Of a DNA stretch of 13,808 nucleotides, positions 3,795 through 8,646 are shown piece after piece (within the stretch, counting starts at the first letter, position 1; each line of letters opens with the position of its first letter). Location: UHGV virus genome UHGV-0153759; one strand, given 5' to 3'. The notes below the pieces were generated by a model. That model made no database searches and was not told the DNA's origin. It saw only the letters and a program-made list of their open reading frames with translations. Made by a program: the position numbers and the translations under genes. Source of the DNA: a virus.

Positions 3795-4398
3795 TTCGCG
3801 CCTGCTGCCGACCGGCTCATCACCGCTTGAAGTCGCTGCTGCAAAAGCCTGTGCGGAAATTGAAAAAACGCCGGTCAGTATTCGTGAGCTGTGGAACCCG
3901 GACACCTGCCCGGCAAATCTGCTGCCGTGGCTGGCGTGGTCATTTTCGGTTGACCGCTGGGATGATAAGTGGCCGGAAGCGACAAAACGCGCCGTTATCC
4001 GCGATGCGTATTTCATTCACTGCCATAAGGGCACTATAGGCGCAATCCGGCGTGTGGTGGAGCCGCTCGGCTATCTGATTGAGGTGAGGGAGTGGTGGCA
4101 ACTCAATGAGGAGCCGGGGACGTTCCGTATCGTTGTTGGCGTGCTTGAGCAGGGTATTACCGAGGAAATGTATCAGGAGCTGGAGCGCCTAGTTGCTGAT
4201 GCAAAACCGGCAAGCCGCCATCTGACGGGACTGGCTATCAGTTTAAGTACAACCGGCAACATTTTTGCCGGTGCGGGATGCTATCACGGCGACGCCCTGA
4301 CGGTTTATCCCTACACCCCGGAGGCCATTATTGTCGGAGGGGATTATTTCCCGGCCTCGGCCATTCATTTAATTGATAACCTGAGAGTAAACGCATGA
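3787..4398 (+). CDS. I: baseplate/tail protein I
   Basis: 203 aa at the P2 gpI position; start overlaps the J stop by 8 nt and the stop overlaps the H start (ATGA). Longer than I expect for P2 gpI, so the true start could be internal. Confidence 0.75.
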   Translation: MSDSRLLPTGSSPLEVAAAKACAEIEKTPVSIRELWNPDTCPANLLPWLAWSFSVDRWDDKWPEATKRAVIRDAYFIHCHKGTIGAIRRVVEPLGYLIEVREWWQLNEEPGTFRIVVGVLEQGITEEMYQELERLVADAKPASRHLTGLAISLSTTGNIFAGAGCYHGDALTVYPYTPEAIIVGGDYFPASAIHLIDNLRVNA

Positions 4399-5684
4399 CA
4401 GTGAAATACTACGCCATTCTGACTAATCAGGGCGCAGCACGGCTGGCTAACGCGACGATGCTCGGCAGTAAGCTGAATCTGACGCAAATGGCCGTTGGTG
4501 ATGCGAATGGTGTCTTGCCGACACCAGACCCGGCACAGACAAAACTGATTAACCAGAAACGCATCGCGCCGCTGAATCTTCTGAGTGTTGACCCGAACAA
4601 CCAGAGCCAGATTATTGCGGAGCAAATCATCCCTGAGAACGAGGGCGGATTCTGGATCCGTGAGATTGGGCTTTATGATGATGAAGGCGTACTCATTGCG
4701 GTGGCGAACTGCCCGGAAACGTACAAACCGCAGTTGCAGGAAGGCAGTGGTCGTACCCAGACTATCCGCATGATTCTGGTTGTCACGAATACCGAAGCTA
4801 TCACGCTGAAAATCGACCCGTCGGTGGTACTGGCGACCCGTAAATACGTGGATGATGAAGTCCTGGAATTAAGGCTGTATGTGGATGACCAGATGAGAAA
4901 CCACATTGCCGCACAGGATCCTCATACCCAGTATGCGCAGAAACATAATCCGACATTTACCGGAGAACCAAAAGCGCCGACGCCTGCCGCAGGAAATAAC
5001 ACCACGCGGATTGCGACCACTGCGTTTGTACAGGCTGCTATTACCGCTCTGATTGACGGTGCGCCAGCCACGCTGGACACGCTGAAGGAAATTGCAGCAG
5101 CTATCAACAATGACCCGAAATTCAGCACCACCATTAACAATGCGCTGTCAGGTAAGCAACCACTGGATGAGACGCTGACTCATTTGAGTGGAAAGGATGT
5201 GGCTGGTCTTCTCGCATACCTTGGTTTGGGAGAAGGCTCAGCATTACCCGTTGGTGTCCCTGTTCCCTGGCCTTCTGTCACACCACCGACAGGCTGGCTG
5301 AAATGCAACGGTGCGGCTTTTTCTGCTGAAGAATACCCGGAACTGGCAAAGGCTTACCCGAGCGGAAAATTACCTGATTTACGCGGTGAATTTATTCGTG
5401 GCTGGGATGACGGGCGCGGTGTGGATACAGGTCGAGCCATCTTAAGCGCACAGGAATGGTTGACAGGGAGTCATTGTCACTATATCCGGTCATGGGACGC
5501 ATGGAATAATACAGTACTGGAACCAAATGACAGACAGGGCGACAGTCTGTTGTCGACAGATAACGCCGTGCAGGAAGGTGCGATTAACGGGAGGTTTACC
5601 AGTCAATACAGAACGGAGTTTTCAGGGGGAAATGAAACCCGCCCACGTAACATCGCCTTCAATTATATTGTGAGAGCTGCATAA
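4395..5684 (+). CDS. H: tail fibre protein H: constant N-terminal part fused to a variable, invertible C-terminal part
   Basis: 429 aa. C-terminal part carries a tail-collar-like motif (PTGWLKCNGAAFSAEEYPELAKAYPSGKLPDLRGEFIRGWDDGRGVD). A recombination site lies at codon ~276 (LAYLGLGEG, 5209-5234). Confidence 0.85.
   Translation: MTVKYYAILTNQGAARLANATMLGSKLNLTQMAVGDANGVLPTPDPAQTKLINQKRIAPLNLLSVDPNNQSQIIAEQIIPENEGGFWIREIGLYDDEGVLIAVANCPETYKPQLQEGSGRTQTIRMILVVTNTEAITLKIDPSVVLATRKYVDDEVLELRLYVDDQMRNHIAAQDPHTQYAQKHNPTFTGEPKAPTPAAGNNTTRIATTAFVQAAITALIDGAPATLDTLKEIAAAINNDPKFSTTINNALSGKQPLDETLTHLSGKDVAGLLAYLGLGEGSALPVGVPVPWPSVTPPTGWLKCNGAAFSAEEYPELAKAYPSGKLPDLRGEFIRGWDDGRGVDTGRAILSAQEWLTGSHCHYIRSWDAWNNTVLEPNDRQGDSLLSTDNAVQEGAINGRFTSQYRTEFSGGNETRPRNIAFNYIVRAA
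5209..5234. repeat. left inversion crossover site (hix/gix-like, 26 bp) inside H
   Basis: TTCTCGCATACC-TT-GGTTTGGGAGAA: two imperfectly palindromic 12-bp half-sites around a central TT, with the AAACC/GGTTT core typical of Hin/Gin sites. 5221-5234 is the exact reverse complement of 7133-7146. Confidence 0.7.
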
Positions 5685-6286
5685 TGAATAACGCGATATT
5701 AAATAATGACCTTATTGCCGTACAGGCGGGAAACGTCATCGTTTATAACTATGATGGTGAGACGCGGGAATATATTTCCGAATCAACTGAATATCTTGCT
5801 GTGGGTGTTGGTATTCCGGCATGTTCCTGTTTAGAGGCTCCTGGTACACATAAGGATGGTTATTCAATTTGCCGCTCTGTGGATTTAAATTCATGGGAAT
5901 ATGTGCCGGACCATCGCGGTGAAATTGTCTTTAGCACCGAAACAGGAGAATCAAAAGAAATCACAGCACCGGGTGATTACCCTGATAATACAACCACTCT
6001 CGTACCGTTAACGCCATACGATAAATGGGATGGTGAAAAATGGGTGACAGATACTGAGGCACAGCATAGTGCCGCAGTAGGCGCGGCAGAAGCACAGCGT
6101 CAGTCACTGATTGATACTGCAATGGCTTCCATTAGTCTGATTCAACTGAAATTGCAGACCGGGCGGAAGCTGACGCAGACAGAAAACACCCGACTTAACG
6201 CTGTGCTGGATTACATTGACGCGGTGACGGCAACTGATACCAGCACCGCGCCGGATATCAATTGGCCTGCTCCCCCGGAGGCGTAG
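5684..6286 (+). CDS. tail fibre assembly (chaperone) protein, G/U-like
   Basis: 200 aa directly after H (TAATG overlap); C-terminus has the tail-fibre-assembly signature (DYIDAVTATDTSTAPDINWPAPPE). Appears AT-richer than the flanking tail genes. Confidence 0.8.
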   Translation: MNNAILNNDLIAVQAGNVIVYNYDGETREYISESTEYLAVGVGIPACSCLEAPGTHKDGYSICRSVDLNSWEYVPDHRGEIVFSTETGESKEITAPGDYPDNTTTLVPLTPYDKWDGEKWVTDTEAQHSAAVGAAEAQRQSLIDTAMASISLIQLKLQTGRKLTQTENTRLNAVLDYIDAVTATDTSTAPDINWPAPPEA

Positions 6287-6674
6287 GCCAGACGGGATTT
6301 GATGTATCAACGCGCATCAGCAAGACCCGGTATTTTTTCCATTCAGATAACGCGGCGGTTTCTTCTGCCGTCGCGATTTCCGCATCAAAAGCATCCTGTC
6401 TCCAGACTATTTCCTTATCAGCCATAGAACGCAATACCGTTCTTTTCTGTTCAGCCTGAATAATCTGTTGTTCAGCGGAGAGTGGCGGGATATCAATCCA
6501 CGCAGGATTACCATTTTTATCAGCCCCCAGCGTTTTGCCTTGTGGCGCTACGCCTGTGTAAATTGCCATTGTTTCATCATCAACATCAACGCCATTTTCA
6601 GGCCATGAACCGGCGCTGATATATACCTCTTTTAGTGCTTTCGGATAGAAAGAGCCTTTATAAAATTTATTCAT
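6258..6674 (-). CDS. second tail fibre assembly protein, inverted orientation (U'-like)
   Basis: Start is probably the ATG at 6674 (MNKFYKGSFYP, typical Tfa N-terminus); the supplied ORF extends to a TTG at 6704. C-terminus WKKYRVLLMRVDTSNPVWPTPPGE is the Tfa signature. Convergent with the + strand Tfa gene, sharing 29 bp at the 3' ends. Confidence 0.7.
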   Translation of the reverse strand: MNKFYKGSFYPKALKEVYISAGSWPENGVDVDDETMAIYTGVAPQGKTLGADKNGNPAWIDIPPLSAEQQIIQAEQKRTVLRSMADKEIVWRQDAFDAEIATAEETAALSEWKKYRVLLMRVDTSNPVWPTPPGEQAN

Positions 6675-6676
6675 TC

Positions 6677-7186
6677 TTAATACCCCAGCGCGATAAAACA
6701 ACAATCTTCGGTGCCCTCTCCGGATGGCGACCAGTTCTGAATACTGATATGCGTTCTGCTGGCAATACGCACATTCATCGCGGCATTGTAGCCAGATGTT
6801 CCACGGTTTCCGGTCGCAAATAAGCCTGCATAGGGAAAAGCAAATGGTAAGGCATATCCAGCATCAGCTCCCTTTTGTGTTGCCACCGTTCCCCACTGCA
6901 ACATAAGTTTCACCGGGTTTCCTGTCGTCGCAATGCATGGAATGTAGATGTAGCCATTCCCTGACATCATTGACCTGAAGCTGTCTAAATCCAGTAACTT
7001 CGAGGCATTATCTGCTCCAACATCTCGTGTTGCGGCGGTCCCTAACTGGAGCGCATTTCGGAAGGCTGATACATCAGAAATATCAGCTCCATTAGCCGAT
7101 TTCTGCATAGCTCCGGAGGCTTTATTTATCGTTTCTCCCAAACCAACGTTTAAGAAAATGCAGAGATTACGGCTAACTGGCATCAT
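6677..7186 (-). CDS. alternative tail fibre C-terminal segment (Sv'-like), expressed only after inversion fuses it to the H N-terminus
   Basis: Minus-strand frame is open from the stop at 7196-7198 down to 6677; the ATG at 7186 is probably not a real start. Contains the in-frame crossover site (NVGLGE, 7133-7158) and a fibre-tip-like motif (GYIYIPCIATTGNPVKLMLQWG). Its stop abuts the Tfa' start. Confidence 0.65.
   Translation of the reverse strand: MMPVSRNLCIFLNVGLGETINKASGAMQKSANGADISDVSAFRNALQLGTAATRDVGADNASKLLDLDSFRSMMSGNGYIYIPCIATTGNPVKLMLQWGTVATQKGADAGYALPFAFPYAGLFATGNRGTSGYNAAMNVRIASRTHISIQNWSPSGEGTEDCCFIALGY
7133..7158. repeat. right inversion crossover site (hix/gix-like, 26 bp), 55 bp upstream of the invertase remnant
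   Basis: TTCTCCCAAACC-AA-CGTTTAAGAAAA; 7133-7146 is the reverse complement of 5221-5234 (14/14), and the central dinucleotide is compatible (TT vs AA). Confidence 0.7.
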
Positions 7187-7213: not shown

Positions 7214-7396
7214 ATGCTTATTGGCTATGTCCGCGTGTCAACAAATGACCAGAATACGGAATTGCAGCGTAACGCGCTGGAGTGCGCAGGATGTGAGCTG
7301 ATTTTTGATATTGGCCTGTCCACGCTCTATAAAAAATTCCCCTCATCAGCGACAAAGAATAAATTGTGTCATCCCTTAGCCAACCGGGACAAATAG
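7214..7396 (+). pseudogene. remnant of a Hin/Gin/Pin/Cin-family serine DNA invertase with an in-frame internal deletion
   Basis: 60 aa. N-terminus MLIGYVRVSTNDQNTELQRNALECAGCELIF matches, from my memory of Pin/Hin, the invertase N-terminus including the catalytic Ser; it joins directly to IGLSTLYKKFPSS, which resembles the extreme C-terminal helix-turn-helix tail. About 130 codons of the catalytic domain are missing. Confidence 0.75.
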
Positions 7397-7455
7397 CCTG
7401 ACATCTCCGGCACAACAGAAAATATCACTCACCCATTAACCACGGAGTTAAACGG

Positions 7456-8646
7456 ATGAGTGACTATCATCACGGCGTGCAGGTGCTGGAGATTAACGAC
7501 GGCACCCGCGTCATTTCCACCGTATCCACTGCCATTGTCGGCATGGTCTGCACGGCCAGCGATGCGGATGCGGAAACCTTCCCCCTCAATAAACCTGTGC
7601 TGATTACCAATGTGCAGAGCGCAATTGCAAAGGCCGGTAAAAAAGGCACGCTGGCAGCATCGTTGCAGGCCATCGCTGACCAGTCAAAACCGGTCACCGT
7701 TGTCGTGCGTGTGGAAGACGGCACCGGCGACGACGAAGAAACGAAACTCGCGCAGACCGTTTCCAATATCATCGGCACCACCGACGAAAACGGTCAGTAC
7801 ACCGGACTGAAAGCCCTGCTGGCGGCGGAGTCGGTAACCGGTGTTAAACCGCGTATTCTTGGTGTGCCGGGACTGGACACCAAAGAGGTGGCTGTTGCAC
7901 TGGCATCAGTCTGTCAGAAGCTGCGCGCTTTCGGGTATATCAGCGCATGGGGCTGTAAAACCATTTCCGAGGTGAAAGCCTACCGCCAGAATTTCAGCCA
8001 GCGTGAGCTGATGGTCATCTGGCCGGATTTCCTCGCATGGGATACGGTCACCAGTACCACCGCCACCGCGTATGCCACCGCCCGTGCGCTGGGTCTGCGC
8101 GCTAAAATCGACCAGGAGCAGGGCTGGCATAAAACGCTGTCCAATGTCGGGGTGAACGGTGTTACCGGCATCAGCGCATCCGTCTTCTGGGATTTGCAGG
8201 AGTCCGGCACCGATGCTGACCTGCTTAACGAGTCAGGCGTCACTACGCTGATTCGCCGCGACGGTTTCCGCTTCTGGGGTAACCGTACCTGCTCCGATGA
8301 CCCGCTGTTCCTCTTTGAAAACTACACCCGCACCGCGCAGGTGCTGGCCGACACGATGGCTGAGGCGCACATGTGGGCGGTGGACAAGCCCATCACCGCA
8401 ACGCTGATTCGCGACATCGTTGACGGCATCAATGCCAAATTCCGTGAGCTGAAAACAAACGGCTATATCGTGGATGCGACCTGCTGGTTCAGCGAAGAAT
8501 CCAACGATGCGGAAACCCTCAAGGCCGGAAAACTGTATATCGACTACGACTATACCCCGGTGCCTCCTCTTGAAAACCTGACCCTGCGCCAGCGTATTAC
8601 CGATAAATACCTGGCAAATCTGGTCACCTCGGTTAACAGCAATTAA
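7456..8646 (+). CDS. FI: contractile tail sheath protein FI
   Basis: 396 aa, P2 gpFI size, first gene of the FI-FII-E-T-U-D block; GGAG about 8 nt upstream of the ATG. Confidence 0.9.
   Translation: MSDYHHGVQVLEINDGTRVISTVSTAIVGMVCTASDADAETFPLNKPVLITNVQSAIAKAGKKGTLAASLQAIADQSKPVTVVVRVEDGTGDDEETKLAQTVSNIIGTTDENGQYTGLKALLAAESVTGVKPRILGVPGLDTKEVAVALASVCQKLRAFGYISAWGCKTISEVKAYRQNFSQRELMVIWPDFLAWDTVTSTTATAYATARALGLRAKIDQEQGWHKTLSNVGVNGVTGISASVFWDLQESGTDADLLNESGVTTLIRRDGFRFWGNRTCSDDPLFLFENYTRTAQVLADTMAEAHMWAVDKPITATLIRDIVDGINAKFRELKTNGYIVDATCWFSEESNDAETLKAGKLYIDYDYTPVPPLENLTLRQRITDKYLANLVTSVNSN

Follow-up and report, generated by a model that had tools for sequence, protein, structure and literature searches.

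The DNA analysed here, called the window below, is a stretch of 13,808 nucleotides from the virus genome UHGV-0153759. It corresponds to the tail module of a P2-like prophage (Peduoviridae), with open reading frames collinear in the order V-W-J-I-H-G ... FI-FII-E-T-U-D, and over its full length it is 97-99% identical in nucleotide sequence to annotated P2-like prophages. It contains an invertible fibre cassette and what is left of an invertase gene, with the following features.

4395..5684, plus strand: tail fibre gene H, 429 aa, constant up to the left crossover site (ORF list; 'phage tail protein' in relatives)
5209..5234, no strand assigned: left 26-bp crossover site, TTCTCGCATACC TT GGTTTGGGAGAA, inside H, an inverted repeat with 7133-7158
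5235..7132, no strand assigned: interior of the invertible segment (ORF list; annotations of LR-72 and GYB01; homologous segments occur in flipped form in other carriers)
5235-5684, plus strand: expressed variable C-terminus of H
5684-6286, plus strand: tfa gene following fibre tip 1
6258-6704, minus strand: alternative tfa gene
6677-7132, minus strand: alternative fibre tip (ORF called to 7186)
7133..7158, no strand assigned: right 26-bp crossover site, TTCTCCCAAACC AA CGTTTAAGAAAA, an inverted repeat with 5209-5234
7214..7396, plus strand: invertase remnant ORF, a pseudogene; 60 codons that correspond to residues 1-31 and 169-197 in a serine invertase of Gin/Pin type with 197 aa
7236..7298, no strand assigned: putative recombinational enhancer, intact, with two Fis-type sites (consensus scan and conservation)
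7297..7308, plus strand: deletion junction, the one remaining copy of a 12-bp direct repeat, GCTGATTTTTGA
7365..7382, plus strand: candidate activator site of the late promoter of the sheath operon, TGTGTCATCCCTTAGCCA, one mismatch to TGT-N12-ACA
7456..8646, plus strand: tail sheath gene FI, intact and directly downstream of the remnant (ORF list, annotations)

Both 26-bp crossover sites are intact, and their central dinucleotides, TT on the left and AA on the right, match when one site is inverted; the left site is common to all carriers of the allele described below. No cognate invertase adjoins the segment, its neighbour being the 60-codon remnant, whose translation is MLIGYVRVSTNDQNTELQRNALECAGCELIFDIGLSTLYKKFPSSATKNKLCHPLANRDK followed by the stop codon.

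Related E. coli prophages carry at the same position a 594-nt gene annotated as 'recombinase family protein'. The closest full-length allele, that of E. coli ECJXMCRH7 (L026 5056-5649, 594 nt, WP_000905097.1, 197 aa), was used as reference; this genome and the window are 99.7% identical on either side of the deletion. The 197-aa parent matches the Mu Gin structures 3uj3 and 4m6f over residues 1-182 (E about 1e-94), and its gene is 79.8% identical to e14 pinE over 530 nt; by these similarities the parent is a Din-family invertase serving a fibre switch of the G-, C- or P-segment type. Base by base, the ORF of the window equals the ECJXMCRH7 allele minus nt 96-506, with 0 mismatches, that is, an in-frame deletion of 411 bp (137 codons) that removes residues 32-168. 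This exact reconstruction bears out the preliminary description, which had proposed an in-frame fusion of the invertase N-terminus, with its catalytic serine (Ser9), to the last helix of the C-terminal DNA-binding domain, and had taken the catalytic core to be lost. That account had also suspected a short-repeat deletion from two 'IF' motifs, and 12-bp direct repeats do occur at both ends: in the ECJXMCRH7 allele the deletion is bounded by two copies of GCTGATTTTTGA, at gene nt 84-95 and 495-506; no direct repeat in the full-length gene is longer. The two copies code for ..ELIFED.. and ..ALIFDI.. in the same phase and account for the 'LIF(E/D)' motifs; as the L-I-F codons are identical in the two, the frame is kept across the junction. 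A single 411-bp deletion between the repeats, through replication slippage or short-homology recombination, would most likely explain the allele.

Pfam searches agree with this structure. Remnant residues 3-35 align with positions 2-42 of the 145-position Resolvase profile (E 3.5e-6), and residues 30-44 with positions 30-44 of the 45-position HTH_7 profile, its last helix (E 0.05, below the curated cut-off when taken alone); in the full-length relative HTH_7 is matched over positions 1-43 (E 1.1e-12). The C-terminus of the remnant is identical to that of the full-length allele, so its resemblance to invertase C-termini is exact. The deleted 137 aa have left no trace elsewhere in the window (tblastn, best E 3.8), and the same search with the deleted core found no other invertase there; an 'exon' up- or downstream that would restore the enzyme was considered and is ruled out for the window by this result. 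The deletion took away the bulk of the catalytic domain, helix E, which mediates oligomerisation, and two HTH helices, the first and the second. The remnant thus descends from a full-length Din invertase gene and keeps Ser9, and it has neither a complete resolvase-type catalytic domain (~135 aa, with the Ser nucleophile and helix E) nor a three-helix HTH_7 C-terminal domain. Because residues 32-168 are deleted, it is a pseudogene and not a functional member of the Din family; annotations of relatives label the allele 'recombinase family protein, incomplete' (PGAP).

The resulting peptide is left with 31 of the ~135 catalytic-domain residues, Ser9 among them, and a single HTH helix out of three; it has no minor-groove arm. 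Such a product cannot catalyse recombination. The earlier idea that the small protein might still bind DNA finds little encouragement in one remaining HTH helix, a lost minor-groove arm and an AlphaFold model of the 60-mer, computed from a single sequence, with a mean pLDDT of 53, a pTM of 0.34 and 0 residues at or above 90; very probably the product neither folds nor binds DNA.

Scanning for the 15-bp Fis consensus, GNNYRNNWNNYRNNC, we found a proximal site at 7236-7250 that matches loosely and a distal site at 7284-7298 that matches strictly. Centre-to-centre distances are 48 bp between the two and 97.5 bp from the proximal site to the right crossover site. Seven genes, namely four P2-type alleles, two pinE genes and Mu gin, share these Fis-type sites, at gene nt 23-37 and 71-85; the enhancer is called from sequence and geometry, and this conservation could partly reflect protein-coding constraint. 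The geometry of 7236-7298 matches that of the hin enhancer, which spans 65 bp with a Fis site at either end, lies within the invertase gene and is situated ~100 bp from hixL (PMC3798978). Up to nt 95 (window position 7308) the remnant does not differ from the full-length allele, which puts the start of the deletion ~10 bp beyond the distal Fis core. The loss of part of the enhancer, which had been thought probable, is not supported: both Fis-type sites are situated wholly upstream of the junction, in native sequence to 7308, and as far as can be read from these sites the putative Fis-dependent enhancer is not damaged. Because the left repeat is located just 3' of the enhancer, all cis elements survive, i.e. 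the two 26-bp sites and the ~63-bp putative enhancer (gene nt 23-85). Because every cis element survives, Din-family invertases from other loci of the cell, which are known to stand in for one another, should still be able to act on the segment, with an enhancer that is presumably functional.

The 3' end of the remnant marks the edge of the inserted DNA. Invertase-less P2-type phages match the window only from 7364 on, which places the right edge of the invertase/cassette insertion within the last 32 nt of the invertase ORF and makes the 3' tail of the ORF (..LCHPLANRDK) P2 backbone and promoter DNA. The interval 7301-7460 contains no exact TGT-N12-ACA motif and only the one-mismatch site; this copy, TGTGTCATCCCTTAGCCA, may be the activator site of the late promoter of the sheath operon.

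The allele is neither rare nor confined to one background. A 42-bp sequence across the junction is present in 25 of the 5,426 complete E. coli genomes and is chromosomal in each case; this invertase locus occurs in 372 genomes, of which the 25 make up ~7%. A protein identical to the 60-aa product is encoded on 434 public contigs. The junction is absent from the GTDB species representatives, and in IMG/VR it has a single match (L029, UViG_2671180841_000012), only 97% identical. That scaffold has an 'NN' join at 8205-8215, exactly within the right crossover site, with ~90 bp missing; a break of this kind would be expected if the reads held both orientations. The remnant haplotype occurs on at least five backbone/cassette combinations (Y5, MNCRE44/NCTC10973, SRY149, 1332KP and LD27-1, with that of the window in addition); P2-like prophages clearly recombine with one another. 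The window itself joins a Y5-like backbone (22 differences in 4.66 kb) to an LR-72-like cassette with two tfa genes, and no complete E. coli genome has this combination of backbone, cassette and deletion. In LD27-1 (L024 4880-5042) the junction is accompanied by four SNPs, at positions equivalent to 7204, 7237, 7276 and 7285 of the window, and could be the product of an independent deletion or of later recombination. The distribution would be explained most simply if the deletion arose once and was then passed among mosaic P2-like prophages by recombination.

Whether the switch has moved since the deletion can be asked within one prophage lineage with a small 1.2-kb cassette, which we call the Y5 lineage and which is represented by 18 complete genomes. 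All 18 have the deletion. Six are in state A, with a 371-aa H and the tfa gene (WP_047149170.1) on the minus strand; in the 12 of state B that tfa lies on the plus strand and H measures 431 aa. Flanking sequences of Y5/strain 1000 (state A) and of the state B majority show 0 SNPs in 4.66 kb, while L032 (state A) and L033 (state B) are 100.000% identical over 2,737 + 4,251 bp. The inverted block spans exactly from crossover site to crossover site, and the inner half-sites are reciprocally exchanged between states; the remnant haplotype is the same in A and B except at the inner-half positions 7139 and 7142, which change from CA to AT with the switch state. A second cassette type has been flipped too (L030/L036 versus L031, 99.8-99.9% identical over 1.87 kb), on backbones that differ by 0.3-2%. 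The view that the switch is likely frozen in one orientation is thus not supported, the identical deletion being found in both orientations between flanks that are 100% identical over 7 kb, with breakpoints at the crossover sites. Judged from these comparisons the switch is not frozen at the population level, and the polymorphism is one between genomes. The most economical reading would be that the deletion came first and was followed by at least one site-specific inversion; a single inversion after the deletion is enough for the Y5-lineage data.

No member of the Y5 lineage with a full-length invertase was found among the complete E. coli genomes. EC7 (L028, NZ_CP060963.1), the only other genome with the Y5-lineage cassette, was considered as a possible full-length ancestor and rejected: it is a prophage of a different kind, with e14-/Mu-like baseplate genes and pinE, and has only the cassette in common. 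At 4366-6472 of this non-P2 prophage the cassette stands beside an intact pinE, with a 100% identical 334-bp fibre tip and the same tfa (WP_047149170.1), and a retron Ec67-family reverse transcriptase adjoins it. The arrangement in EC7 points to an exchange of whole invertible cassettes between unrelated prophage families.

An inversion without an enzyme of its own would call for invertases in trans, which the preliminary description had offered as the alternative to a frozen switch. We used a chimeric query made of 334 lineage-specific bp and a 250-bp Din invertase core, with the 334 bp alone as control. The chimeric query matched at 2-3 places in every Y5-lineage chromosome and the control at exactly 1, which leaves 1-2 further Din-type cores per carrier, these figures being match counts per chromosome for the 250-bp core. 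The extra cores are close enough to pinE for megablast in 8 of the 18 carriers and more divergent in the other 10. GYB01 and AF43 have a second P2-like prophage with a full-length copy of the invertase. In E. coli GYB01 (L001, L007) many phage genes, among them the full-length invertase of the second prophage, carry a frameshift in the annotation, and these frameshifts are probably long-read homopolymer errors rather than real pseudogenes. Across the species, the core query was matched in 4,498 of the 5,426 complete genomes (83%). There is precedent for action across systems: according to work cited in PMC12529663, PinE inverts both the H segment of Salmonella and the G segment of Mu, and the P2-like prophage Fels-2 encodes Fin, which inverts the hin segment (Kutsukake 2006). 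With its cis sites intact and other invertase cores present in the carriers, inversion by an enzyme in trans is supported as the probable way in which the segment turns. Co-resident Din invertases would have performed the observed inversions, the host of the window presumably encodes one as well, and it is very likely that other invertases in the cell still operate the switch.

Three other explanations have to be set against this reading. Were the switch truly frozen, the two orientations would stem from independent, identical deletions in prophages that were in different states beforehand, or homologous recombination would have moved the remnant between prophages. The 12-bp repeat could let the deletion recur, the LD27-1 junction is found on a different 5' haplotype by 4 SNPs, the remnant sits on at least five mosaic backbones, and for the second flipped cassette pair flank identity is only 98-99.7%. 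Against this stands the Y5 lineage, where the perfectly identical flanks extend over 7 kb in both states, all 18 genomes carry the deletion with no full-length member found, and the remnant haplotype is identical in both states; the sole differences are the reciprocally swapped inner half-sites, a signature of site-specific exchange and not of homologous replacement. We therefore regard a frozen switch as unlikely.

An origin of the junction in sequencing or assembly, by collapse of the two 12-bp repeats, has a negligible probability. Short repeats can give rise to local misassembly, and one IMG/VR scaffold does have an NN gap at the switch, but the same junction recurs in 25 independent complete genomes from many laboratories and platforms, and its product is listed in 989 blocks of a public collection. 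Given the 42-bp junction in 25 complete chromosomes and the 60-aa product on 434 contigs, the junction is no assembly artefact. It is also very improbable that the 60-aa fusion is functional, for example as a regulator that binds DNA or through a dominant-negative effect on other Din invertases, with an in-frame junction maintained by selection. The ORF is intact, with its native Shine-Dalgarno sequence and start codon, it is widespread, and it retains Ser9 and the recognition helix. Against this, the reading frame follows directly from the phase of the repeats, the protein has lost helix E, without which dimers do not form, the minor-groove arm and two of the three HTH helices, and the AlphaFold model is of low confidence, which is weak evidence since it comes from a single sequence. 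Variation among carriers is too small for a test of purifying selection on the remnant.

We conclude with good confidence that the ORF is the remnant of a Din-family invertase in the tail-fibre host-range switch of a P2-like E. coli prophage, whose cis elements are intact and which was inverted after the deletion, remaining a substrate for other invertases. It is unlikely that the allele represents more than this, namely an orphan switch whose flipping has been outsourced to the invertases of co-resident prophages, the recombinase being removed and the enhancer and crossover sites spared; its occurrence on at least five P2-like backbones and on hundreds of public contigs would then be due to selection or preferential spread, for example through lower or conditionally triggered switching, and not to drift or hitch-hiking.

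The system has close relatives. Like the G segment of Mu with Gin and the C segment of P1 with Cin, the window combines inverted 26-bp crossover sites with alternative fibre C-termini, which have assembly genes of their own, and with a putative enhancer within the 5' part of the invertase gene, in which the Fis-type sites occupy matching nucleotide positions. Unlike them, its invertase has lost codons 32-168, so that the switch is without a recombinase of its own, and the element is a P2-like prophage. The P segment of e14 in K-12, served by PinE, has the same layout (stfP-tfaP / tfaE-stfE). The K-12 pinE gene (L027 4686-5240) shares the left copy of GCTGATTTTTGA at nt 84-95, but it is intact, and because the right copy is missing (C-terminus VAIIYDVG) this deletion cannot occur there. 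To judge from the alleles compared, the predisposition is specific to P2-type alleles with ..ALIFDIG... Deletion of pinE locks the P segment (PMC12529663). Hin and Fin of Salmonella offer a precedent for a P2-like prophage invertase and a chromosomal switch working in trans, although the P2-like prophage here is the recipient of the help and not its donor, and the deletion allele is a natural one, not a laboratory mutant. The invertible tail-fibre loci of P2-like prophages in E. coli, for example in EPEC E2348/69, which are of the same kind but have their own intact invertase, were seen by sequencing to phase-vary in culture (PMC4272514).

What these comparisons add is mechanistic. The allele itself is already in the databases, flagged by PGAP as a pseudogene of a well-known enzyme family. 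Conceptually little is gained, since the parts of such switches and the ability of Gin, Cin, Pin, Hin and Fin to complement one another were already known in the 1980s. The points added are the deletion endpoint that spares a putative gene-internal enhancer, a clean natural case of a short-repeat deletion narrowly missing a regulatory element within a gene, and an inversion without the element's own invertase, seen by comparison of genomes. A phase-variable host-range switch of a phage can lose its own enzyme and yet work as long as the cis signals survive. In annotation, a 'truncated recombinase' beside an invertible fibre cassette does not equal a locked switch, and in phage typing, tailocin work and phage therapy the fibre expressed may hinge on co-resident prophages.

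Two further observations concern the Y5 lineage. Its cassette (L002 3667-4000 / L005 4518-4851) comprises two fibre tips and one tfa, and in state A (H of 371 aa) the expressed fibre is not followed by a matching assembly gene on its own strand, so that in one of the two states this lineage may give a defective or a chaperone-independent fibre. In the Y5-lineage prophage of E. coli NRZ95651 (L018 6419-8721), the IS21-like element ISEc12 lies between the sheath and tube genes, and because of this insertion that copy is probably unable to make tails.
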